Source: a bacterium (GTDB taxonomy: Bacteria; Zixibacteria; MSB-5A5; GN15; FEB-12). From it: a DNA stretch of 64,000 bases. Below the pieces are notes generated by a model that was given only the letters and a program-made list of their open reading frames with translations, was not told the origin of the DNA and searched no databases. The translations under genes were made by a program, and so were the position numbers. The stretch is from assembly GCA_016708025.1 (NCBI GenBank), contig JADJGQ010000004.1, positions 196,903 to 260,902 of the forward strand. Direction: 5' to 3'. Within the stretch, counting starts at the first letter, position 1. Every line of letters starts with the position of its first letter. This document shows, in pieces, positions 2,741 through 40,504 of the stretch.

Positions 2741-4030
2741 TCATACGGTTCCGTCACTGTCAGTTTCTGTCAGTACGGCAATTGATGAGAGGTAAGTAGC
2801 GAGATTTGCCTCAGAATTTTGTAATCCGAGCTTGCGACGGATCACTTTTCGTTGTTTGAGGACGGTTTGAACCGAGCTATTGCGGACTCCGGCAATCTCT
2901 TTACTGCTGTACCCGCGACGGATCAGGCTGCAGATCTGGATCTCCTGGGGGGTCAGGTGGCGGAATTTCTGTTCAAGGCGACTGACCAGCGGTGAAGTGA
3001 TCTCCTGCAGGCTTGAGCTGATCAGGTTCATATACTCTGCACAGCGGCCATCCACTTTCCCTTTCATATGTTCGAACAGCGGCATGACGACGCGGTCGAT
3101 GTTGGCCTGGATCTGCATGGCGGCGGCCCGTCGGCTTTCGCCGATCTGGTCGAGCAGGTCCTGTTGAAAGAGGTTCTTGCGTTGCAGGGTCTCGCGTTCG
3201 ATGGTGAGCTGGTCATTGGCCGCTTTAAGCTCCTGGGTTCGTTCGGCGATCTTTTTGGCGAGATCCTGCTGGGCCAGACGGAGTTGCTCCTCTGCCTCCT
3301 TATTGGCGGTGAGGTCAATATTGTGTATTTGCACCTGATTGGGTGGGATAAAGACGTAGTAGGCGCGCACGTACTTTTGCCCAGAGATCGACTTCATTTG
3401 ATAGAGCATTTCGCGCTGCACGACCTCGCGGGACTCCAGACATGTCCGCAAATCGGACATGATCTCCGACTGCTCGCCATAGAGAGCGGACGCTCGCAGG
3501 CCGATAAGTTTTGCCGCGCCGCCCAGGGTCATTGAAGCGGCGGCTTCGTTATAGCTGACCAGCTTGAAATCTGTTCCTGTCTGCTCCCAGGTAAATGTTG
3601 GGAGCGGGAGAGCGAGAAACTGGAGGCGGAAACGTTCCTCGGATTGTTGGAGGGCGATCTGTGTTTCGCGCTGTTGTGTGACGTTGCGCAGCAGCGTCAC
3701 AACATACTGAACCTTCTCTTCAATCACGATCGGCAGCAGTTCCACTTCAACAGTCAGTTGCTTCTTACCAAAGTGATAGAGTGACTCAGAGCGAAGCGGC
3801 TGAGCTGTGTCGAGAACGACCTGATAGTTGTCCTTGACCCGTTGGGGAAGGAAGCTAAAGACCTCGAACATTGGTCGGCCGATTAGGTCATCGACTTTCC
3901 AGTCAAATTCGGTGTTCCAGCGGCCAAGCGCCTGATTGCAGAAGACCATGCGGAAATCGCGGTCGACCACTATCACGGGCAGACTGATGGTGTTGACTGT
4001 ATGGCGTAATAGCGAAAGTTCATCAGGCAT
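2741..4030 (-). CDS. PAS-domain sensor fused to a LuxR/FixJ-type helix-turn-helix transcriptional regulator
   Basis: Two PAS-like N-terminal segments, a coiled-coil linker (QLRLAQQDLAKKIAERTQELKAANDQL) and a C-terminal LuxR HTH (LTPQEIQICSLIRRGYSSKEIAG...SVQTVLKQRKVIRRKLG). Confidence 0.8.
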   Translation of the reverse strand: MPDELSLLRHTVNTISLPVIVVDRDFRMVFCNQALGRWNTEFDWKVDDLIGRPMFEVFSFLPQRVKDNYQVVLDTAQPLRSESLYHFGKKQLTVEVELLPIVIEEKVQYVVTLLRNVTQQRETQIALQQSEERFRLQFLALPLPTFTWEQTGTDFKLVSYNEAAASMTLGGAAKLIGLRASALYGEQSEIMSDLRTCLESREVVQREMLYQMKSISGQKYVRAYYVFIPPNQVQIHNIDLTANKEAEEQLRLAQQDLAKKIAERTQELKAANDQLTIERETLQRKNLFQQDLLDQIGESRRAAAMQIQANIDRVVMPLFEHMKGKVDGRCAEYMNLISSSLQEITSPLVSRLEQKFRHLTPQEIQICSLIRRGYSSKEIAGVRNSSVQTVLKQRKVIRRKLGLQNSEANLATYLSSIAVLTETDSDGTV

Positions 4031-4275
4031 GCGACATCAGCTCCAATCCCTTACAGGTGCGACTATTATCTTAAGAAAACAAGTGAGGCTGAGGGGATAT
4101 CTTTTCTTCTCGTGGAGTCATCCGGCTATCTTAAAATCTATTCCAATCTAATCGCGAAATATATCTGGGACGAGATTCATCACGACGTTTACGGCATGGA
4201 TGCGGCTGGCCTTTTGACCTGCCGTGTTTGTACTCTTCCATATTCAGGCGGCTTCGGCCGTAAGGAAAGGTAGAA

Positions 4276-4794
4276 GTGAAAACGTTAGTGACAATGCTTA
4301 GCGCGTTGCTGCTGTGCGGCACAGTGGCGTTGGCTCAGCCGGATTCGATCGTCATTCTGCATACGAATGACACCCATGCGCATCTCTTGCCGTATGGGCC
4401 CAAGGACGCTGCGGGAAATTGGCAGTGGGGCGGATTTGCCCGAGTGGCGACGGTCATGCGTACCTTCGTGCGGGGCTTCTTCGGGGACTTTATGTTCCAG
4501 GAGTATCTGAGCATTCCTGAACTGAGTTTGATGAAGGCGATGGGATATGATGCCATTGCTTTGGGGAATCATGAGTTTGACCTTTTTCCTTCGACGTTGA
4601 TGTACATGCTCAGTCAGGCAGGATTGCCCGATCCGTCCATGCCTGTGTTATGCGCGAATCTGGATCTCAGCGGTGAGCCGGGAATGGGTTACTTCGTACA
4701 ACCATACACGATCAGAGAGTATGGAGGAACCGGTTGGCTTGTTTGCGACGTGCAAATGGGTGGTGGCGTGGAGGGTGGTTGTACTGCGGGTTAG
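4276..4794 (+). pseudogene. truncated 5'-nucleotidase/UshA-family metallophosphoesterase (N-terminal 172 aa only)
   Basis: GTG start after AAGGAAAGG. Signal peptide MKTLVTMLSALLLCGTVALA. Metallophosphoesterase motifs ILHTNDTHAHL and LGNHEFD. Family members are normally around 500 aa or more, but this frame decays after about 4740 and runs into the G-homopolymer region. Confidence 0.6.
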
Positions 4795-5008
4795 TTGCTG
4801 GTTGACTATTTGATAGTGGGCGGGCGCCTTACTGGGGGCGGTCGAGGTCAACGGCGGGAAATTCACCGGCGTTTGGTGGTCATATTGCCGGACGACTCTG
4901 TGTTGAAGGTGGTGAGTCGCGGATTTGACTACTACCCAATGGCGATTGACCATCTCCCGGAGGAGCCGACTATTGCCGGGGATGCTGGATGGGGATGGGC
5001 AGACCCTC

Positions 5009-5283
5009 GGGGGGGGGGCCGGCAGGAACGCGGGGGGGCGGCGGCCGGCGGCGGGGGGGGGGGGGTTTGTCGGCGCCGGAATTGGGGACCCGGAAAGTTC
5101 GCGTTTTGAGATGCCGGTCGTTTAGGGGGGGGAAAAACAAAGAAGGGGGGGTCCCCCGGTGGTGGGACAGCGCGGGGGGGGGATTTGAAAAGACGGGGGC
5201 CGCGGTCGCGGCTGGGGTTCCCCGCGGTGAGGCGGGGCTGAAGGCCAAATTGCCAAAAAGGTTGGCGGGGGGGGGGGGGGGGG
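5009..5283 (+). repeat. cluster of seven G homopolymers (7-17 nt), all on the + strand
   Basis: Runs counted directly: G10 5009-5018, G7 5032-5038, G13 5053-5065, G8 5125-5132, G7 5145-5151, G9 5174-5182, G17 5267-5283. No credible coding frame on either strand. Confidence 0.9.
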
Positions 5284-5372
5284 AGGGGCCCGGAAGGAGT
5301 GCCCCTGCCTGATTGGCTGTTCAGGAAGTTAACATTCCAGCGATCTGCCAATAGAGACTGATAGAATCCATC

Positions 5373-5400
5373 TTGACAAAAACGAGCTTTCCGGTATACT
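5373..5400 (+). promoter_or_regulatory. sigma70-type promoter of the tyrosine-operon leader
   Basis: TTGACA (5373-5378), 16-nt spacer, TATACT (5395-5400). It lies about 25 nt upstream of the leader ORF start. Confidence 0.6.
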
Positions 5401-5425
5401 GAGACTGTCAGGAGACAGAATTCAG

Positions 5426-5539
5426 ATGGTAGTCCAGACTTCCTACATAGCACCGCAATCCAATCCGAACGAAGAGGCGCGATACTGCGCGTCCTATTAT
5501 TACTCTCTTTACCCGGTGGTGGGCGGCATGGAAGTCTGA
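5426..5539 (+). CDS. candidate tyrosine-rich leader peptide (37 aa): MVVQTSYIAPQSNPNEEARYCASYYYSLYPVVGGMEV
   Basis: Absent from the ORF track because it is under 60 aa. AGGAGA (5410-5415) lies 10 nt before the ATG at 5426, and the TGA stop is at 5537-5539. Six of 37 codons are Tyr, including three consecutive ones (TAT TAT TAC, 5495-5503) and TAC at 5510. The ORF sits between the promoter and an intrinsic terminator, upstream of aroH-aroF-tyrA. Confidence 0.6.
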   Translation: MVVQTSYIAPQSNPNEEARYCASYYYSLYPVVGGMEV

Positions 5540-5575
5540 GCAGATCAGACCAAGACCAGAGCAGGCCCGCTACCG
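5514..5575 (+). promoter_or_regulatory. putative antiterminator pairing, mutually exclusive with the leader terminator
   Basis: CGGUGGUGGGC (5514-5524, leader codons 30-33) is complementary to GCCCGCUACCG (5565-5575) over 11 bp (9 Watson-Crick plus 2 G-U). The second segment contains most of the 5' arm of the terminator. Confidence 0.5.
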
Positions 5576-5595
5576 CAAGGAAGCGGGCCTTTTTC
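5563..5595 (+). terminator. intrinsic terminator (attenuator) upstream of aroH
   Basis: AGGCCCGCU (5563-5571) pairs with AGCGGGCCU (5582-5590). An inner CC/GG pair closes a GCAA tetraloop, followed by TTTTT (5591-5595). It lies 33 nt before the aroH ATG. Confidence 0.75.
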
Positions 5596-5627
5596 ATGAG
5601 TGATCTTACGAAGACGAGGAACAGCAA

Positions 5628-6005
5628 ATGATGGCCGTACGGGGTATTCGTGGAGCGGTGACGGTGGCAGCCAACAGCAAAGAGGCGATCACTTCGGCGA
5701 CGCGCGAGTTGTTGAACGCAATCGTCGCGGAGAATCAGCTTGAGCCGGACGATATCGCGGGGATCATGTTCACCTCGACGCCGGACCTGACGGCGGAATT
5801 CCCGGCATATGCCGTTCGCGGGCTTCACTGGCCGACGGTGCCACTTCTCTGTGCACAGGAAATAGATGTTCCGGGCGCTATGCAATCGGTGGTGCGAGTA
5901 TTACTGCTCGTGAATACCACCAGAACACCGCAAGAGATCAAACATCAATATCTGGGTGAGGCGAGGCAGTTACGCCCCGACCTGACCGAAGGAGATCCGG
6001 CATGA
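5628..6005 (+). CDS. aroH: chorismate mutase, AroH class
   Basis: MMAVRGIRGAVTV...TSTPDLTAEFPAYAVR...LRPDL is collinear with B. subtilis AroH (MMIRGIRGATTV...SATPDLHAVFPAKAVR...LRPDL). 125 aa. Confidence 0.9.
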   Translation: MMAVRGIRGAVTVAANSKEAITSATRELLNAIVAENQLEPDDIAGIMFTSTPDLTAEFPAYAVRGLHWPTVPLLCAQEIDVPGAMQSVVRVLLLVNTTRTPQEIKHQYLGEARQLRPDLTEGDPA

Positions 6006-7015
6006 TCATCGTAATGCGTTCGGATGCCACCGAAGAACGGCTGCAGCATGTTCTGGAACGGGTGCAGGAGTTGGGCTTTCGCCCACATCTGTCCCGTGGC
6101 GAGAAAAAGACGATCATCGGCGTGGTAGGCAATGGCAAGGTAGTCGATCCTGCCATTTTTCAGTCGTTGATCGGGGTCGAGTCAGTGGTGCCGATCCTCA
6201 AGCCATTCAAATTGTCGAGCAGGGAGTTCAAACCTGAGACCTCGGTCATTTCTATTGGCAATGTCAAAATAGGCGGGGAACAGGTAGTTGTGATGGCGGG
6301 TCCCTGCGCGGTTGAAACGCGAGACCAGATGATGGCCTCGGCAGAGGCTGTCGCCAAGGCGGGGGCGAAGATACTGCGCGGCGGGGCGTTCAAACCGAGA
6401 ACGTCGCCCTACAGCTTCCAGGGACTGGGTGAGCCGGGACTGGTCATCCTGAAGGAAGTGGGTGAGCAGTTCGGGTTGCCGATCGTCACCGAGGTGGTCT
6501 CACCACAAGATGTTGCGTTAGTCGCGAGCTATGCGGATGTTCTTCAGGTGGGAGCGCGCAATATGCAGAACTTCTCGCTACTTGAGGAGTGCGGCAAAAG
6601 TCATAAGCCGGTATTGCTCAAGCGGGGGTTGATGGCGACGATCGAAGAACTGCTGATGTCGGCAGAGTATATCCTGTCCAACGGAAATCCCAATGTGCTC
6701 TTATGTGAGCGGGGGATCAGGAGTTTCGAGAAGTGGACACGCAACACGCTGGATATCTCGGCGGTGCCGATTCTCAAGCAGTTGAGCCATTTGCCGGTGA
6801 TCGTCGATCCGAGCCACGCGGTCGGAAGGCGCGAATTGGTTGGGCCGGTATCCAAGGGGTCGATCGCTACTGGTGCTGACGGATTGATAATTGAAGTACA
6901 CCCCGATCCGGAACGGGCGCTTTCCGATGGTGTGCAGAGTATGTATCCGGCAGATTTTGCCGAACTAATGGATGATCTGGAACATATTGCACAGGCAGTC
7001 AAGCGAACGATATGA
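6002..7015 (+). CDS. aroF: 3-deoxy-7-phosphoheptulonate (DAHP) synthase, type I-beta, with an N-terminal ferredoxin-like regulatory domain
   Basis: 337 aa. The N-terminal ~70 aa (MIIVMRSDATEERLQHVLERVQELGF...) resemble the ACT/FL regulatory domain of Thermotoga-type DAHPS. Core motifs are GPCAVE, LRGGAFKPRTSPYSFQG, LQVGARNMQN and VIVDPSHA. It overlaps the aroH stop by 4 nt. Confidence 0.9.
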   Translation: MIIVMRSDATEERLQHVLERVQELGFRPHLSRGEKKTIIGVVGNGKVVDPAIFQSLIGVESVVPILKPFKLSSREFKPETSVISIGNVKIGGEQVVVMAGPCAVETRDQMMASAEAVAKAGAKILRGGAFKPRTSPYSFQGLGEPGLVILKEVGEQFGLPIVTEVVSPQDVALVASYADVLQVGARNMQNFSLLEECGKSHKPVLLKRGLMATIEELLMSAEYILSNGNPNVLLCERGIRSFEKWTRNTLDISAVPILKQLSHLPVIVDPSHAVGRRELVGPVSKGSIATGADGLIIEVHPDPERALSDGVQSMYPADFAELMDDLEHIAQAVKRTI

Positions 7016-7875
7016 AGAAATTTGGCGAGATGACCGGGCTGATAGTTGGTCTTGGACAGATCGGCGGTTCGATCGGGATGGAATTAGTGGGGCGACGGGT
7101 GGTCGCGCGAGTGATCGGGTTTGATGCGAATCGGGGGAGTATGTCCCGCGCCCTGGAGCGGCATGCGGTCGACCAGACCTCGGCGACTCTCAGAGCGGGT
7201 CTTGCGCAGGCCGATATGGTGATCCTCGCGACTCCGATCGACGTCACACTGCGTCTGCTTCCAACTGTGTTGGAAGTCCTCCCGAAGGGGAGTCTGTGTC
7301 TGGATGTTGCCAGCACGAAGGGGGGGATCATGCAATTGGTGCAGAAGCTGAAACCATCCGCGGGGTATGTTTCGCTTCATCCGATCGCCGGTACCGAAGG
7401 GACTGGGATCGAATCTTCACAGACCGGACTTTTTCAGGATAGGATCATAACATTCACTCAGGATAAAAGTGCATCATCGGCGCAGGTCAGGCTTGTTAAG
7501 CAGATGATACAGGCGATCGGCGGGAAGCCGTTGTTGATCGGCGCCAAGCGGCATGACCATCTACTGGCGCAGACAAGTCACCTTCCGTATGCGATCGCGA
7601 CGGCGCTTGTGCAGGTGGTAGCGGAGACCGGTCGAAGCGACAAGTTGCTCCAGCGATTGGCGGGCGGGAGTTTGCAGAGCGCAACGCGTGTGGCGAAGTC
7701 ATCGCCGGAGTTGACGCAGAATCTCCTGCAGAGCAATCGGGCGGAAGTGTGCGGCGCGATAGGGAGAATGGAAACGGAGCTGTCCAGATTGCGCAAGATG
7801 ATCCAGTCGAACGATAGTCAAGCGCTAGCGCAGTATGTTAAATCGGCTCACAAACGGGCAATTAAAGGGAAGTAG
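7012..7875 (+). CDS. tyrA: prephenate (or arogenate) dehydrogenase
   Basis: Rossmann motif GLGQIGGSIG, then HPIAGTE and the SHLPYAIA motifs typical of TyrA. It overlaps the aroF stop by 4 nt. Confidence 0.85.
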   Translation: MKKFGEMTGLIVGLGQIGGSIGMELVGRRVVARVIGFDANRGSMSRALERHAVDQTSATLRAGLAQADMVILATPIDVTLRLLPTVLEVLPKGSLCLDVASTKGGIMQLVQKLKPSAGYVSLHPIAGTEGTGIESSQTGLFQDRIITFTQDKSASSAQVRLVKQMIQAIGGKPLLIGAKRHDHLLAQTSHLPYAIATALVQVVAETGRSDKLLQRLAGGSLQSATRVAKSSPELTQNLLQSNRAEVCGAIGRMETELSRLRKMIQSNDSQALAQYVKSAHKRAIKGK

Positions 7876-7878
7876 CAG

Positions 7879-8991
7879 TTGGAACGTGCCTCACGAATTG
7901 GATCACTCGACATCAGCCTGATACGGCAGATCGCTGAAGCGGCGCCGGCAGGGGCGATCCCGCTAGGGATCGGTGAGCCGACCTGGGATCTTCCAGCGCC
8001 GGCCCTAAAGGTACTGCATGATTGGTCAGGGCGTGCGCCCTATGGAGCGGGGACGGGTCTACCAGAACTTCGGCAGGCAATTGCGACCTATTACGGCGTG
8101 ACGGTGGACCATGTGGTTGTGACGCAGGGGTCGATCGGCGGACTTTTTTCGCTATTGCAGGCATGGGTAGGAGCCGGGGATAGGGTTCTTCTGCCTGATC
8201 CGGGTTTTGTGACCTATCCAAATCTGGTTCGGTTTGCGCAGGCGGAACCGGTCTTCTATCCGCTGAATGAAGCCAATAGATTTCGCCTGGATGTGGCTCA
8301 GGTTCTTTCGCGCCTGGATGACAAGCGAGTCAAAGCGGTGATAGTGAATCATCCCTCGAACCCGACTGGTGCAGGGTGTGATGCTGACGATCTGAAAAGA
8401 CTGGCAGAGGAATGTCACGCTCGGGGGATTCTATTGATCTCGGACGAAGTTTACCGGGACCTCTATTTTGGTCATCGACCGGCGGGACTTCGCGAGCACT
8501 CGCCTCATGGTGTGGTAGTCAGTTCGGTCAGCAAAGGATGGGGAGCGCCGGGGTTGCGAGTGGGATGGATGATCGGTGACCCGGAGCTTCTGGCGCCAGC
8601 CAGGACAGTCCACAGCTATGCGACGACCTCGCCATCGTATGTGGCGCAGAAGGCGGCGCTGGCGCTGATCGAAAACAGCGAAGAGATACACCTAGCCGCG
8701 CGGAGAGAGCTACAGGCGCGGTGGGAGGCGTTACGCGAGGCCAAGCTACGGTATTTTGGGATCGCTGATCTTCCTCCAGATGGATCATTCTACCATTTCA
8801 TGCCATTGCCGGACGGGGCAGAGAGTGATCCCGTTGCGTTTGCGATCAAAGTACGAGATGAGGCCGGAGTGGTTGTGATCCCGGGTCTGGCGTTTGGCGA
8901 ACGAGGGAGGAGATATATGCGAGTGAGTTTCGCAGCCACGCCAGAACAGATTGACGAGGGGATCCGCCGCTTGGCACCGTACTGGCGTTGA
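7879..8991 (+). CDS. class I/II PLP-dependent aminotransferase, probably aromatic or aspartate aminotransferase
   Basis: TTG start 3 nt after the tyrA stop. NHPSNPTG and the PLP-lysine motif SVSKGWGAPGLRVGW are present. 370 aa. Confidence 0.8.
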   Translation: MERASRIGSLDISLIRQIAEAAPAGAIPLGIGEPTWDLPAPALKVLHDWSGRAPYGAGTGLPELRQAIATYYGVTVDHVVVTQGSIGGLFSLLQAWVGAGDRVLLPDPGFVTYPNLVRFAQAEPVFYPLNEANRFRLDVAQVLSRLDDKRVKAVIVNHPSNPTGAGCDADDLKRLAEECHARGILLISDEVYRDLYFGHRPAGLREHSPHGVVVSSVSKGWGAPGLRVGWMIGDPELLAPARTVHSYATTSPSYVAQKAALALIENSEEIHLAARRELQARWEALREAKLRYFGIADLPPDGSFYHFMPLPDGAESDPVAFAIKVRDEAGVVVIPGLAFGERGRRYMRVSFAATPEQIDEGIRRLAPYWR

Positions 8992-9011
8992 TCGTCTTCT
9001 TGCTTCACGGA

Positions 9012-9770
9012 CTATTTCGGCGGATGGTACATCCAGACATTCGGTTCGCAATAGGTGCCGATATCCGCTTTCAGATCGATCTCAATTGGATTTAATGCTC
9101 CCGGAATAATGTACTGGCCGGATTGTAAAAAGCGCAGGCCGGTCCATTTCTCCCATGAGGCAATGCTGTTTTTGACCCAGAATGCCTTGTGGCAGACAGA
9201 GACGACCCGTGCGCCGAGCCGGGCATGAACCCGCATCCAGGCATCAAAGGGGAGTCCTTCTTCAGTTTTCCACTTGATGTAGTCATCCATCGGAATCAGC
9301 GGATAATCAGACTTTCTATTTGGCCGTACCGGAGCGACCATGTGGGGAATACCCTGTTTGGCGCCGAGTGAGCGCATCGCTTTGACTACCTCGCCGCTCG
9401 CTCCTTTGGAGCGGAGCTGGGGGCTGATGCAGATCTGCAGGGCAGACTGATAGTTCGGGGTGCGGCCAGCGCGGCGATCTTCGATCCCCTTCATGAGCAC
9501 CCACTCCCAGCCTTCATCGGGAAGTTGTTCGACAGGTTTATCCCAGTAGAAGCTGATGGAATTCCCCTGCGCGACGAGGGAATCATCGCGGGTGTCAATC
9601 AGGCCGAACTGGTACTCGGGGAAATCAGAGAAGAGATACTTGAAATTAACGTCGGCTATCTCATTCTCGTACATGAAAGCCGGCCATGAGCTGCTGGTCA
9701 ACTCGTGGATCTTCGGTTCAATATCGGGCCGTTCGGCCGTGGTGACGAATTTGTAGTATGATTCAAGCAT
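9012..9770 (-). CDS. conserved hypothetical protein, possibly a GNAT-like acyltransferase fold
   Basis: 252-aa clean ORF. The central segment LRSKGASGEVVKAMRSLGAKQG resembles a GNAT acetyl-CoA-binding loop. The functional call is weak. Confidence 0.4.
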   Translation of the reverse strand: MLESYYKFVTTAERPDIEPKIHELTSSSWPAFMYENEIADVNFKYLFSDFPEYQFGLIDTRDDSLVAQGNSISFYWDKPVEQLPDEGWEWVLMKGIEDRRAGRTPNYQSALQICISPQLRSKGASGEVVKAMRSLGAKQGIPHMVAPVRPNRKSDYPLIPMDDYIKWKTEEGLPFDAWMRVHARLGARVVSVCHKAFWVKNSIASWEKWTGLRFLQSGQYIIPGALNPIEIDLKADIGTYCEPNVWMYHPPK

Positions 9771-9806
9771 AGCGGCGAAGATAGGGACGGTGAAAGAATC
9801 GGCAAG

Positions 9807-10664
9807 TCATTTTTCCGGGGGGAAAGTAGATTGTAGATAGATCTGGAGATTGGTGTCGAGGTTGATGATACCAAGTTTGCGTCGGATCATTTCGCGGTGT
9901 TTTTGAACCGTGGTAGGAGAGACTTTCAGCGTAAGGGCGATCTCGTTGCTGGTCAGACCGGACCTTATCAGGCGACAGATCTCCAGCTCACGAGGGGAGA
10001 GGGTAGGGAAATTCTGCTGGAGTGAGCTGATAAATGGTGAGGTGATCTCGGCCAGGTCCTTCTCCAGGATCGAGGCGAGGTGAAGAGTGCGTTTCTGAGT
10101 TGAGGTTTTCAGTTCGCGGATGGTCGGCGTAATGGCGCGTTTGATATTGGTGGCCAACTGAAGTCTGATCTGTCTGTTTTCGTCGTTCACATGTTCAAAC
10201 AGCTCGCGCAGTGCCGCCACCTTGCGGCCAAGCCCCTGGCATTCCTGGTGCGCCTGATAGGCTTCATTGCGCAAACCGGAGCGGAGCCTAGCGGCCTCGA
10301 GTTCTCTTCGAACCGCAAATGGCAGGCGGTCAAGATCAGTTAGCGTGAAGCAATCGTTGGCGCCCGCGGCAACCAAGTGGCCGAATGGGAGATTGGCGAT
10401 TGAAGCGGTGAATGCCATGATCGGGATGTCAAGACGGTGTTCTTCTCGCAGTCTGGCAGAAGTAGACAAGCCGACTGAATCGGAGTCCAGGTCGACGATA
10501 ATCAGTTCGCAGCCGCCAGCGAGGAATGCCTCGGTCAACTGTTCTGATGTTTCAATGAACTGCACGGCCAATTCGAAGCCGGATTCTTTTAGGGAATGAG
10601 AAATGGCCGGCCAGTGAGACTGGTCAGTCGCCAAAAAAAGAACTTTTAGAGTATCTTTGCGCAT
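9807..10664 (-). CDS. response-regulator receiver domain fused to a LuxR-type HTH
   Basis: I trimmed the track ORF (9807..10772) to the ATG at 10664 (MRKDTLKVLFLATD...). It has a receiver-like N-terminus (ELIIVDLDSD), a coiled coil and the LuxR HTH LSPRELEICRLIRSGLTSNEIA...TVQKHREMIRRKLG. Confidence 0.8.
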   Translation of the reverse strand: MRKDTLKVLFLATDQSHWPAISHSLKESGFELAVQFIETSEQLTEAFLAGGCELIIVDLDSDSVGLSTSARLREEHRLDIPIMAFTASIANLPFGHLVAAGANDCFTLTDLDRLPFAVRRELEAARLRSGLRNEAYQAHQECQGLGRKVAALRELFEHVNDENRQIRLQLATNIKRAITPTIRELKTSTQKRTLHLASILEKDLAEITSPFISSLQQNFPTLSPRELEICRLIRSGLTSNEIALTLKVSPTTVQKHREMIRRKLGIINLDTNLQIYLQSTFPPEK

Positions 10665-10904
10665 CAAAATCAAGTCTTTCGCACCACGGGTAATGATAAA
10701 TGATACAATCTGCGTTATCAGACCTCTTCCAAACAATTGCTCAAAAATAGACAACAAGGCCACATTCTGCAAGTAGAAAGGGATGAAGCGTTAGGGGTGA
10801 GGATTGGTCTGATTGGCTGTTAAAGACTGGCGTCGGGGAGTGGGTGTTTATATACTGGTCGGAGTTTCCGGACCCGAAAATTGGTGAATTCAGAGAGCGC
10901 ATTA

Positions 10905-13796: not shown

Positions 13797-15753
13797 ATGC
13801 GCACATTCGCCGTTTTGCTGTTTATCACCCTGACAGTCATCATTATGTCTCCATCGAATCTGACCTTTGCCGGTGAGAAGGGGCCGGAGTTCGGCAAAGT
13901 CACCGATGCCGAGTGGCAGTTGTCATTTCCGCCCAAATACCCGGAAGCGAATGCCATAATCGTGTTCGATCGGTGCAGTCTGATGGTTGGTCCGCCCTCG
14001 GAGGGGAGCGGGATCGAAATCCGGCGGCATGTGCGGATGAAGATCCTTCGCCCGGCAGGGGCGGAAGAGATCGGCGAGGTGGAGATTCCGTATCGCGATG
14101 GAGATCGACTCAAGGATGTGAAGGCGCAGACGATCCGACCTGATGGGACGGTCACGAAAGTGGAAGGGAAGGATTTTTTCGAGAAGACGGTCGAAGACTG
14201 GAAGGTCAGGACATTCTCTTTTCCGGCGGCAGACAGCGGCTGTATAGTTGAATATACCTATCGTAATTTCAACAATCGATATTACTATCTCAAGCCGTGG
14301 GATTTTCAGACAGATATCTATACTCTGGAGTCTCGTTTTGCGCTGACGTTGTATCCGGGGTTCACTTACAGTTCCTCCTACAGCAATGTACCGGTCACCA
14401 AGCGGGACCCGGTTGTTACCGAGTCAGTTGCTCCCGGGGATATCTTCACGACGCTCAAGTGTTTTGTTTGGCGAATGGAGAATCTTCCTCCGCTGGTTGA
14501 TGAACCGTACGGTGGAGTCGAGGCGGATTACCAGTCGAGCCTCAATTATCAGCTTGTTTCGTACAAGTATCCTAAGTCGGGGTACATCGAGAAATATATT
14601 GAAGGGTGGGAGGATCTGGGAGAAAAGCAGGACAAGTTTCTGCGAGACTACTATTCCAACGGAAAGGTGAAGCCGCTGCTGGAGCCGTTGATCGCGGGGA
14701 TCACCGATCCGCTGGAGAAGACCCGACGGATCTACCAGTATGTGACGGCGAATTATGCGGCGAAGGCAGATCCAGTCGGTTACTGGCTGTCGCACGATAA
14801 TCTCAATCAGATGCTCAAGGAGGGGTATGGGACTCCGGAAGAGAAGAATCTCATGCTGGTGCACATGCTTCGGGAGGCGGGGATCCAGAGCTGGCCGGTG
14901 GAGATCAGCACGCGCGATCATAAGCGGTTTAATCCTGAGGTGTTCCAGATCCAGCAGTTCAACCACGTTATCTGCTATGCGCAGTTGGATGACAGCAGTG
15001 GCATTTACATGGATGCCACGACCAAGTACTGTCCCTTTGGGATGCTTCCGCCGAACAGCCTGGTGGAAGGTGGGTTTCTGATCGATGGGAAGAAGTCGCA
15101 GTTGGTCAGGGTGTTTTATACCGATCGTCGGACTTACCGACTGGATGAAACATATGCTGATCGACAGTCTTGGCGCGGCGCGCTGTTCCACCACGTGCAG
15201 TATGACCGGTTATCTGGCATCCAATTTTGGACGGTTGAGTGAAGAGAAGTCCCTGGATGATTTTATCGATGACTATTTCCTTGACTATGTCGGGGAGAAT
15301 CGGACGCTCGAATCCAAATCGCTGACGGCTGATTCGACCGGCCGACTGGTGATCACCTTTGTTTATACTGTGCCGGAATTTGCTAGAGAGTTGGATAACA
15401 ATCTGGTGGTGAAGCCGGTGAGCTATCGGTTCCGCGAGAATCCGTTCACACGGGAGAAGCGGGTTTATCCGATCGACTTTGATTTTCCATATGTCTATCA
15501 CAACGTGGTGATAATTGGCAGTAGTAGACCGATGGTGACGGCGACGCTTCCGCAGCAGGTGACCAGTGCAGCGCCGGGAATCACGTACAAGCGATTGGCG
15601 CAGTTTATCGACGGCAAGGTGCAACTGGATGCCAAGCTGACGATCACCAATGATCTGCTGGAACCGGATGCGTATCCCGAGGTGAAAAAACTGTTCGAGG
15701 ATGTTGCGCACGCGTCACAGGATGAGGTGATTTTGCATATGGGAGCCCAGTGA
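13797..15753 (+). pseudogene. DUF3857 / transglutaminase-like / DUF3858 protein, split by a +1 frameshift and lacking the catalytic Cys
   Basis: Two overlapping track ORFs (13734..15242 and 15085..15753) are together collinear with the downstream 625-aa paralog. The frame switch maps to GAAAC at about 15147-15151. A signal peptide (MRTFAVLLFITLTVIIMSPSNLTFA) starts at 13797. The paralog's GYGDCKG motif reads GYGTPEE here. Confidence 0.6.
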
Positions 15754-39946: not shown

Positions 39947-40504
39947 ATGCGTGCGTTCTCCATTCTGCTCTTTATGTTTGCTCTGTTGATGGTTTGCGCC
40001 TGCCAGCCATCGCTCCTGCCATTTTTCTCCACCCTTGATGAGGTCGGCATCCCCAGCATGGTCGGATCATGGGTGGAGGTTGGTGACGATGCACCACCGA
40101 CGGTCTGGTCGATTGTGGGGGATTCCAACGGATATCAAGTGACCGCGATCGAGGACAGTACACAGAAGGAGTATGAGATCCACGCCTTCAAGTTGGGGGA
40201 TCTCTATTTTCTGGATATCGTGCAGGAGATGACCTGGTCGCAGGATGCGCTCAATGGTGATCTCTTTTTGCAGCAGCATCTGGTCGCCCGGGTTATTCCG
40301 TTTGCTGACAGCATGCAGATCGGCATTTTGAATAGCGAGTGGTGCGCGGAGATGATCGACGAGGAGGAGATACGCGTCCCGTTTGTGGTGATGGAATCAG
40401 GCTATCTGTTGACCGCTAGTGCTGAGCAGATTCGTCCGATGCTGATCAAATATGGGGATGATCCGGATGCATTTCCGCTGGTGACTATGTATCGCCAGCC
40501 GTGA
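39947..40504 (+). CDS. hypothetical lipoprotein
   Basis: Signal peptide MRAFSILLFMFALLMVCAC with lipobox-like Cys residues. No recognised domain. Confidence 0.5.
   Translation: MRAFSILLFMFALLMVCACQPSLLPFFSTLDEVGIPSMVGSWVEVGDDAPPTVWSIVGDSNGYQVTAIEDSTQKEYEIHAFKLGDLYFLDIVQEMTWSQDALNGDLFLQQHLVARVIPFADSMQIGILNSEWCAEMIDEEEIRVPFVVMESGYLLTASAEQIRPMLIKYGDDPDAFPLVTMYRQP

Follow-up and report, generated by a model that had tools for sequence, protein, structure and literature searches.

A putative tyrosine-codon leader-peptide attenuator upstream of tyrosine-synthesis operons in Candidatus Zixiibacteriota

The operon and its leader region

We analysed a stretch of 64,000 nucleotides from a bacterium of the Zixibacteria (contig JADJGQ010000004.1 of assembly GCA_016708025.1, positions 196,903 to 260,902 of the forward strand; referred to below as the window), and in particular the leader region at window positions 5373-5627, which lies directly in front of four genes for tyrosine synthesis and appears to hold a ribosome-mediated transcription attenuator whose regulatory codons are Tyr codons. 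An initial annotation of this DNA had proposed such an attenuator, together with an assignment of the four downstream genes that proved correct in Pfam searches:

5628-6005, + strand: AroH-type chorismate mutase (CM; Pfam CM_1, E 2e-45)
6002-7015, + strand: 3-deoxy-D-arabinoheptulosonate 7-phosphate (DAHP) synthase (DAHPS) with an N-terminal ferredoxin-like (FXD) domain (Pfam DAHP_synth_1, E 2e-82)
7012-7875, + strand: prephenate dehydrogenase (PDH; Pfam PDH_N/PDH_C, E 5e-26)
7879-8991, + strand: class I/II aminotransferase (Pfam Aminotran_1_2, E 7e-59)

The four genes (5628-8991) are linked by 4-nt overlaps or a 3-nt gap, and they cover the first shikimate step and the branch from chorismate to tyrosine. 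The same gene order was found in three related loci, L001, L002 and L005 (related loci are designated by L numbers throughout).

The leader region in front of the CM gene carries the following features:

5373-5400, + strand: sigma-70-type promoter, TTGACA (5373-5378), a spacer of 16 nt and TATACT (5395-5400)
5410-5415, + strand: Shine-Dalgarno sequence AGGAGA, 10 nt before the leader ATG (5426), by direct reading
5426-5539, + strand: leader open reading frame (ORF) of 37 codons, MVVQTSYIAPQSNPNEEARYCASYYYSLYPVVGGMEV, with the stop codon TGA at 5537-5539
5476-5493, + strand: pre-Tyr hairpin, which ends just 5' of the Tyr run and has a loop with a conserved CGA-UAC
5495-5512, + strand: regulatory codons, TAT TAT TAC (5495-5503) and TAC (5510-5512), preceded in the ORF by two earlier Tyr codons
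5509-5526, + strand: segments 1:2, putative local anti-antiterminator hairpin, UUACCCG (5509-5515) with UGGGCGG (5520-5526), the RNAalifold consensus of nine close leaders
5514-5524, + strand: segment 2, the 5' strand of the antiterminator, CGGUGGUGGGC, which pairs with GCCCGCUACCG at 5565-5575
5534-5550, + strand: stop-codon hairpin GUCUGA/UCAGAC, which spans the leader stop codon and lies inside the antiterminator loop
5563-5594, + strand: intrinsic terminator, with segment 3 (5' arm) at 5563-5575, segment 4 (3' arm) at 5579-5590 and five T residues at 5590-5594

Direct reading and folding placed the promoter, the Shine-Dalgarno sequence, the Tyr-rich ORF, the terminator and the antiterminator exactly where the initial annotation had put them, and folding also recovered the two small hairpins that it had listed (5476-5493 and 5534-5550). 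The promoter agrees with the consensus at 11 of 12 positions and is the top-ranking promoter-like site within 4000-10000. Judged by sequence, the ORF that begins at ATG 5426 is a short translatable frame of 37 codons between the promoter and the first structural gene, as in classical attenuators. It contains six Tyr codons and neither Phe nor Trp codons, so that the amino acid produced by the operon is the one whose codons are clustered in the leader (YYY and three further Tyr). A YYY run is found in just one of the 632 short ORFs of the window (20-60 amino acids, six frames), namely the leader ORF itself, and Tyr makes up 2.9% of the residues in the window's long ORFs.

Folding of the switch

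The leader ORF is followed, ahead of the CM gene, by a Rho-independent terminator. Its arms are formed by AGGCCCGCU (5563-5571) and AGCGGGCCU (5582-5590), with an inner CC/GG pairing (5573-5574 with 5579-5580) closed by a GCAA loop, and the stability of the structure is -22.2 kcal/mol. The antiterminator (2:3) consists of 11 bp, two of them G-U pairs, with a duplex energy of -20.8 kcal/mol, and the two structures are mutually exclusive. For transcripts ending at 5575-5586 the antiterminator is the minimum free energy structure; the 5514-5524/5565-5575 helix of the initial annotation is thus thermodynamically competitive, and it also covaries among relatives (see below).

RNAalifold recovered one further element that was absent from the earlier account, the 1:2 hairpin. 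Its core in the window is CCCG (5512-5515) paired with UGGG (5520-5523); the 5' strand takes in the last Tyr codon, and the 3' strand is the 3' half of segment 2. In all 14 leaders examined, segment 2 forms a local hairpin with sequence at the Tyr run or immediately 3' of it, with energies from -4.6 kcal/mol (window) to -15 kcal/mol. This hairpin would be a classical anti-antiterminator, and its position is such that a ribosome held up in the run would sit on it.

In equilibrium folds of the complete leader the terminator always won, with or without ribosome masks. Classical attenuators, too, fold to the terminator at equilibrium, the decision being a kinetic one. Since folds of the complete leader were therefore uninformative, we folded transcripts that end just after segment 3, so that the 3' arm of the terminator was removed, with the ribosome represented by a 29-nt mask and the probability of the 2:3 pairing, P(2:3), as the readout. 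In the window leader P(2:3) was 0.98 in the free transcript, 0.99 with a ribosome stalled at the first Tyr codon of the run, 0.91 with a ribosome stalled at the last one, and 0.00 with a ribosome at the stop codon. The pattern was similar in L001, L005 and L014. In nearly all leaders the last regulatory codon lies 10-19 nt 5' of segment 2 (in the distant L022, about 18 nt from the second YYY run and 30 nt from the first), a spacing that matches a stalled ribosome leaving segment 2 free.

The initial annotation had a ribosome at the stop codon cover segment 2 as a whole. This part needs correction, because the footprint of such a ribosome (about 5522-5550) overlaps only the last 3 nt of 5514-5524. 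The predicted outcome nevertheless stands, and the antiterminator is abolished in the masked fold, since the mask also takes up the stop-codon hairpin and the loop of the 2:3 helix. The stop-codon hairpin, whose part in the switch is putative, forms in the antiterminator conformer according to folding and would be melted by a ribosome that has reached the stop codon.

Conservation in Zixibacteria

Relatives were gathered by searching a collection of 5.8 billion proteins with the CM protein and fetching the encoding contigs, and then by scanning GTDB genomes with the clade alignment; a scan of metagenome contigs gave two loci. These searches place the window in Candidatus Zixiibacteriota, a few of the genomes being labelled Ignavibacteriales. 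The architecture was found upstream of CM/PDH operons in about 12 distinct Candidatus Zixiibacteriota leaders. All relatives whose CM is 77-94% identical to that of the window, and also the distant Zixibacterium L022 (58%), have a short ATG-initiated ORF with a Tyr run, then a strong terminator and then the CM gene, so that conservation of the Tyr-run ORF down to 58% CM identity supports the reading of the initial annotation. The leader peptides are:

L001, L017 and L019: MVVQTSYIASLSTDDAARYWGYYYYSLYPVVGGMSV, YYYY run (YWGYYYY in L001)
L005, L014 and L029: MVVQISQINRVATADIERYGYYYYYALYPVVGGMTV, YYYYY run
L006 (L020 is a close variant): MLNTSLTASRYAAASARYYAYSYYYYADSHGSGRRLSEPE, YSYYYY
L012: MTNLTATFALLRYARYGYYYWFTARRVVGSRHPV, YYYWF
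L013: MTTGTTYFAAYTPARYGWYYYYTPRYIVGGR, WYYYY
L022: MKHKDIIPVAWSYSGYYYRYYYAFTGMTGSGYGKSMNP, YYYRYYY

Two further loci have runs of YYYY (L099) and YYYYY (L100), and a peptide profile search of the protein database gave four additional leader variants, all with YYYY or YYYYY. A 36-amino-acid leader ORF is already annotated as a gene in several public assemblies. A run of 3-5 consecutive Tyr residues is the invariant feature of all Zixibacteria leaders. No leader was found at the loci whose CM homolog is 67% identical (L009-L011). Nor did any Tyr-run leader turn up in the loci fetched from elsewhere (Actinomycetota, Bacillota, Dehalococcoidia and others), the one weak short-ORF match (L023, Bacillota) being judged dubious.

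The leaders differ in ways expected of a translated sequence. Among close relatives the Tyr run shows synonymous TAT/TAC differences only (L005, TAT TAC TAC TAT TAC; L029, TAT TAC TAT TAT TAC; L014, TAC TAC TAT TAT TAC) while the remaining peptide diverges freely, and the ORFs differ in length by 3-nt insertions or deletions only (114 vs 111 nt). The ATG-initiated frame through the run is open in 13 of 13 leaders, and the other two frames in 1 and 7 of the 13. The codons for the C-terminal PVVGG are exactly the antiterminator strand, and L006 keeps the RNA strand CGGCAGUGGG while encoding a different peptide, which indicates that the constraint on segment 2 acts on the RNA and that the constraint on the run acts on the Tyr codons.

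Covariation was scored in an alignment of 12 leaders in register over a trimmed region, with slid registers and 500 shuffles as controls. In the antiterminator 93.1% of the cells were paired, against 29-55% in the slid registers, and none of the 500 shuffles reached its covariation score; two pairs had compensatory double changes (U-A to C-G and G-C to A-U) and three had one-sided changes, with one pair read as C-G in the window, U-G in L001 and U-A in L005. The corresponding values for the terminator were 98.5% of cells paired, 36-64% in the slid registers, four compensatory pairs, and again 0 of 500 shuffles. Because the two helices share a strand, the covariation is three-way, as expected of a switch.

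Elements around the ORF are also conserved to some degree. An identical AGGAGA is present in L001, L017, L019 and L099. The -35 region, CTTGACAAAA(T/A), is conserved in all Zixibacteria homologs, and the conservation goes past the hexamer, as CTTGACAAAA(T/A)NGA..., in otherwise diverged leaders (window 5370-5385; L001, L005, L006, L012, L013 and L022); the additional bases may extend the promoter or bind a protein. The pre-Tyr hairpin is present in 10 of 10 Zixibacteria leaders, where it ends 0-2 nt before the run with energies of -5.4 to -10.3 kcal/mol, and RNAalifold found compensatory changes in two of its pairs; no single sequence was significantly more stable than its own shuffles, and the hairpin is absent from the Anaerolineae leaders described below. 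A hairpin followed by U-rich Tyr codons may serve to pause RNA polymerase and synchronise it with the ribosome, a role that we infer for 5476-5493. The loop of this hairpin carries a CGA (Arg)-UAY (Tyr) dicodon (window 5480-5485) in all Zixibacteria leaders, which in L022 separates the first YYY run from the second. Decoding of CGA is typically slow.

Two variants of the 5' end were observed. In the subtype represented by L005 1760-1864 (also L029, L014 and L100) the promoter and the leader ATG are set further apart by an insert of about 75 nt that is rich in hairpins. In L006 (244-261) and L020 (2764-2781) the leader ATG lies about 7 nt past a TAGTATAAT/TAGTACAAT box and lacks a Shine-Dalgarno sequence; these mRNAs may be leaderless, if the box is a real -10 element.

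Anaerolineae leaders and a Trp-codon leader

Four genomes of Anaerolineae (Chloroflexota) have a like architecture upstream of CM-DAHPS-PDH-EPSPS operons (EPSPS, 5-enolpyruvylshikimate-3-phosphate (EPSP) synthase). Their leaders are unrelated in sequence to those of the Zixibacteria and have Tyr or mixed Tyr/Phe runs, an antiterminator strand of the GCCGUUGGC type and strong terminators:

L032 (Anaerolinea thermophila metagenome-assembled genome), 2829-2969: MSLIGFAFAARYYYYGSSDMEAVGGA
L038, 2838-2975: MNKTASFRFFAYYYFGHRITAAVGRA, YYYF
L059, 2789-2922: MIAHFWFSYAYYFFSSRKPVGPG, YAYYFF
L079, 1073-1205: MRTLFVYRFAFYYDNRSRLPLAMLV, FAFYY

In these four leaders P(2:3) was 0 in the free transcript, 0.86-1.0 with a ribosome stalled at the first Tyr codon, 0.81-0.99 with a ribosome stalled at the last, and 0 with a ribosome at the stop codon. 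The leader-bearing operons of the Anaerolineae read CM-DAHPS-PDH-EPSP synthase, and those of the Zixibacteria CM-DAHPS-PDH, with or without the aminotransferase, or CM-PDH-aminotransferase. PDH is present in every leader-bearing operon and prephenate dehydratase in none. In L059 an S-adenosylmethionine (SAM) riboswitch (2507-2635, - strand) lies divergently upstream of the Tyr/Phe leader locus.

A covariance model built from the Zixibacteria leaders matched all Zixibacteria Tyr leaders. It found no second copy in the window and detected none of the four Anaerolineae leaders, so that common ancestry of the two groups of leaders is not supported. The sole extra full-length match was L006 3043-3237 (27.5 bits, E about 1.5e-4), which is a candidate Trp-codon leader peptide (...YWRWYPG...; ...QQYWRWYPGIRLSDGGSL) before a trpE-like gene; its promoter is of the form CTTGACAAATT, and its strong terminator consists of GGCCCGCUAUCAG/CUGAUAGCGGG followed by U8. 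When a stalled ribosome is placed at Trp in silico, the antiterminator of this leader forms, and when the ribosome is moved to the stop codon, it disappears. Rfam Trp_leader did not match it. This candidate resembles the Tyr leader in phylum, promoter, terminator (GGCCCGCUA...) and in-silico switching, and differs from it in having Trp-Arg-Trp as regulatory codons and in preceding a trpE-like gene. Compared by sequence, the two suggest that the Trp and Tyr attenuators are paralogous in Zixibacteria.

Proposed mechanism and alternative explanations

The leader is most likely a classical ribosome-mediated leader-peptide transcription attenuator, which would sense charged tRNA-Tyr and control the Tyr-synthesis operon. 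With the start site and ribosome footprints that we infer from the sequence and the folds, transcription would begin near 5407 and a ribosome would load onto the 37-codon leader ORF. When charged tRNA-Tyr is scarce, the ribosome would stall on TAT-TAT-TAC (5495-5503) with its leading edge (about 5508-5516) covering segment 1, so that segment 2 (5514-5524) could not fold back and would pair with segment 3 (5565-5575) as soon as the latter emerges. This 2:3 pairing would sequester the 5' arm of the terminator and allow read-through into the CM, DAHP synthase, PDH and aminotransferase genes. When charged tRNA-Tyr is plentiful, the ribosome would reach the stop codon (5537), where its footprint (about 5522-5550) would take in both the stop-codon hairpin and the 3' end of segment 2; 2:3 would be blocked, the 3:4 terminator would fold and transcription would end near 5594. 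Expression of the operon would in this way respond to tyrosine. Because a candidate Trp-codon attenuator occurs in the same phylum, the mechanism appears to be in use in Zixibacteria.

Several observations speak against this interpretation or limit it. Leaders of the L005 and L006 types have no recognisable Shine-Dalgarno sequence. The thermodynamic switch is not clean in L006, L012 and L022, where 15-21 nt separate segment 2 from the stop codon downstream of it, so that a ribosome at the stop codon would not cover segment 2. The 1:2 hairpin of the window is of low stability (-4.6 kcal/mol). At equilibrium the truncated leader of the window forms the antiterminator already when untranslated (P = 0.98), so that it is not predicted to show the superattenuation that classical attenuators undergo without translation. 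Trp or Phe adjoins the run in some relatives, so the specificity may not be purely Tyr everywhere. The covariation alignment holds 12 related sequences with an effective number of 3.7, and its shuffle control ignores phylogeny. All leader sequences come from metagenome-assembled genomes or metagenome contigs.

Some of these points would also be expected if the terminator/antiterminator switch were real but driven by an RNA-binding protein (TRAP- or PyrR-like, recognising UAY repeats or the CGAUAC loop) or by a ligand-sensing RNA, the ORF being incidental. The lack of a recognisable Shine-Dalgarno sequence in two leader types, the conservation of the CGA-UAY hairpin loop at the nucleotide level in Zixibacteria, and the imperfect fit of the ribosome model to L006, L012 and L022 could all be read in this way. 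We regard such a switch as quite improbable, because it does not explain why the frame of the Tyr run is open in 13 of 13 leaders, against 1 and 7 of 13 for the other frames, with insertions and deletions in multiples of three, nor why the run changes by synonymous TAT/TAC swaps rather than keeping a nucleotide motif. The Anaerolineae leaders, moreover, share the Tyr codons and the architecture only and not the sequence, Rfam detected neither a riboswitch nor a T-box, and the leader is too short for an aptamer. The short ORF might instead encode a functional Tyr-rich micropeptide (a modified-peptide precursor or a small regulator, for example), with the hairpin merely its terminator and read-through giving constitutive expression of the operon. 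The MVVQ (N-terminal) and LYPVVGGM (C-terminal) motifs are conserved within the closest subfamily. Both, however, are lost in L006, L012, L013 and L022 although the RNA pairing is kept, the VVGG codons are the antiterminator strand that L006 retains as CGGCAGUGGG although its peptide differs, the peptide has no annotated family in Pfam or elsewhere, and in two phyla the ORF stands always directly upstream of a Tyr-branch operon. This makes a micropeptide the least probable of the explanations considered here, and a very improbable one.

Granted a ribosome-mediated attenuator, it might report general aromatic supply or translation capacity and not Tyr specifically, for which aroR of Corynebacterium is a precedent (PMC11802643). 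The operon includes the common-pathway enzyme DAHP synthase, and Trp or Phe stands beside the run in L001 (YWGYYYY), L012 (YYYWF), L038 (YYYF), L059 (YAYYFF) and L079 (FAFYY). Against this, the window leader has its six Tyr codons with zero Phe or Trp, 3-5 consecutive Tyr are invariant in Zixibacteria, all such operons encode a prephenate dehydrogenase and none a prephenate dehydratase, and L006 has a separate Trp-codon leader before its trpE-like gene. We consider a general aromatic sensor improbable, and a Tyr-specific attenuator remains the interpretation that we favour.

Relation to known regulatory systems

At the gathering threshold Rfam gave nothing relevant in the whole window or in 20 related loci. 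A fluoride riboswitch (L027 3424-3489, + strand) lies directly after the CM gene of Desulfovirgula thermocuniculi. At E<=10 the best match in 5250-5700 was Trp_leader (RF00513), with 15.5 bits against a gathering score of 41, and no T-box (RF00230) appeared. In the absence of an Rfam match at threshold we reject the T-box, the known leader families (Trp_leader, Phe_leader, His_leader, Leu_leader and Thr_leader) and riboswitches, so that the exclusion of known RNA classes, on which the initial annotation depended, holds.

The leader resembles trpL, pheL and hisL of E. coli in having a promoter, a short ORF with tandem codons for the end product, four RNA segments with predicted exclusive 1:2/3:4 or 2:3 pairings and a terminator just before the first gene, with the regulatory codons 10-19 nt upstream of segment 2. 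Unlike them, it uses Tyr codons, resembles none of the Rfam leader families by sequence or covariance model, and occurs in Zixibacteria and Chloroflexota; its segment 1 forms a short local hairpin of low stability in the window, and its stop codon lies downstream of segment 2 and not before or within it. Tyr T-box leaders of Firmicutes likewise sense the charging of tRNA-Tyr and choose between terminator and antiterminator in the 5' leader of Tyr genes. In the T-box, however, the uncharged tRNA itself is bound, being recognised by a specifier codon and the T-box sequence, and no translation is required, whereas the leader described here is too short for this and has an ORF instead.

To our knowledge, the documented specificities of leader-peptide attenuators are Trp, Phe, His, Leu, Thr and Ile/Val, with Cys predicted in addition, and tyrosine is not among them. 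Tyrosine genes are classically described as under TyrR or T-box control. In Corynebacterium glutamicum the aroR leader, with Phe-Tyr-Phe codons, lies upstream of aroF and responds to Phe limitation, Tyr availability having no effect (PMC11802643, summarising Neshat et al. 2014). It is like the present leader in being a leader-peptide attenuator before a DAHP synthase operon with Tyr among the regulatory codons. Compared by description only (PMC11802643), the present leaders differ from aroR in their pure Tyr run (3-5 codons) and in an operon with the Tyr-branch prephenate dehydrogenase, and the window leader, with a Tyr-only run and no Phe codon, falls outside the Phe-Tyr-Phe type. A comparative survey lists tyrosine under T-box regulation and not under attenuators (PMC1262725). 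A screen in Shewanella annotated an aroF motif as an 'attenuator sensing tyr-tRNA', its sole citation being a 1980 physiology paper on E. coli (PMC2659441).

The initial annotation knew of no described Tyr-codon attenuator, and our full-text literature search agrees with it, having found no description of a Tyr-codon leader peptide; three older papers that might hold predictions (Lopatovskaya 2010, Vitreschak 2004, Camakaris 1980) were beyond its reach, and an earlier prediction is possible. Given this incomplete coverage of the older prediction literature, Tyr specificity is probably, not certainly, new for leader-peptide attenuators. To the broader proposal, that these leaders are the first Tyr-specific class of ribosome-mediated attenuators, that the class arose at least twice (in Candidatus Zixiibacteriota and in Anaerolineae) and that its Zixibacteria version is paralogous to a Trp-codon attenuator, we give about even chances.

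If this proposal is true, the specificity of an attenuator can be re-targeted by swapping the regulatory codons on a conserved scaffold of segments 2, 3 and 4, and the apparent Trp/Tyr paralogy would be a concrete case of how attenuator specificity evolves. A conserved and covarying Tyr attenuator would extend the paradigm to the last aromatic amino acid, beside trpL and pheL, and would show the mechanism in poorly studied phyla (Zixibacteria and Chloroflexota). It would also provide a regulatory signature for annotating Tyr-branch operons in metagenome-assembled genomes and, for use in synthetic biology, a natural and compact sensor of Tyr-tRNA. With the version in Anaerolinea thermophila, experimental tests in a cultured organism would be possible.

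Other observations in the window

Two other candidates with a codon run and a terminator, at 14977-15117 (WW) and 40038-40210 (HH), fall within long ORFs and were dismissed as due to chance.

Two LuxR/GerE-type regulators flank the locus (2741-4030 and 9807-10772, both on the - strand), PAS domains being present in one of them and a receiver-like domain in the other; we saw no sign of a link between them and the operon.

Upstream of the leader, window positions 4725-5340 form a G-rich block (38-57% G, with long poly-G runs) that has no homology to the relatives. It replaces about 1.7 kb of an upstream Metallophos/5'-nucleotidase/Por_Secre_tail gene, which is intact in L001, L017 and L019 and of which a truncated ORF of 172 amino acids (4276-4794) is left in the window. 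The block is probably a sequencing or assembly artefact. Homology with the relatives resumes at about 5301-5349, depending on the relative, and the leader is therefore unaffected by it.

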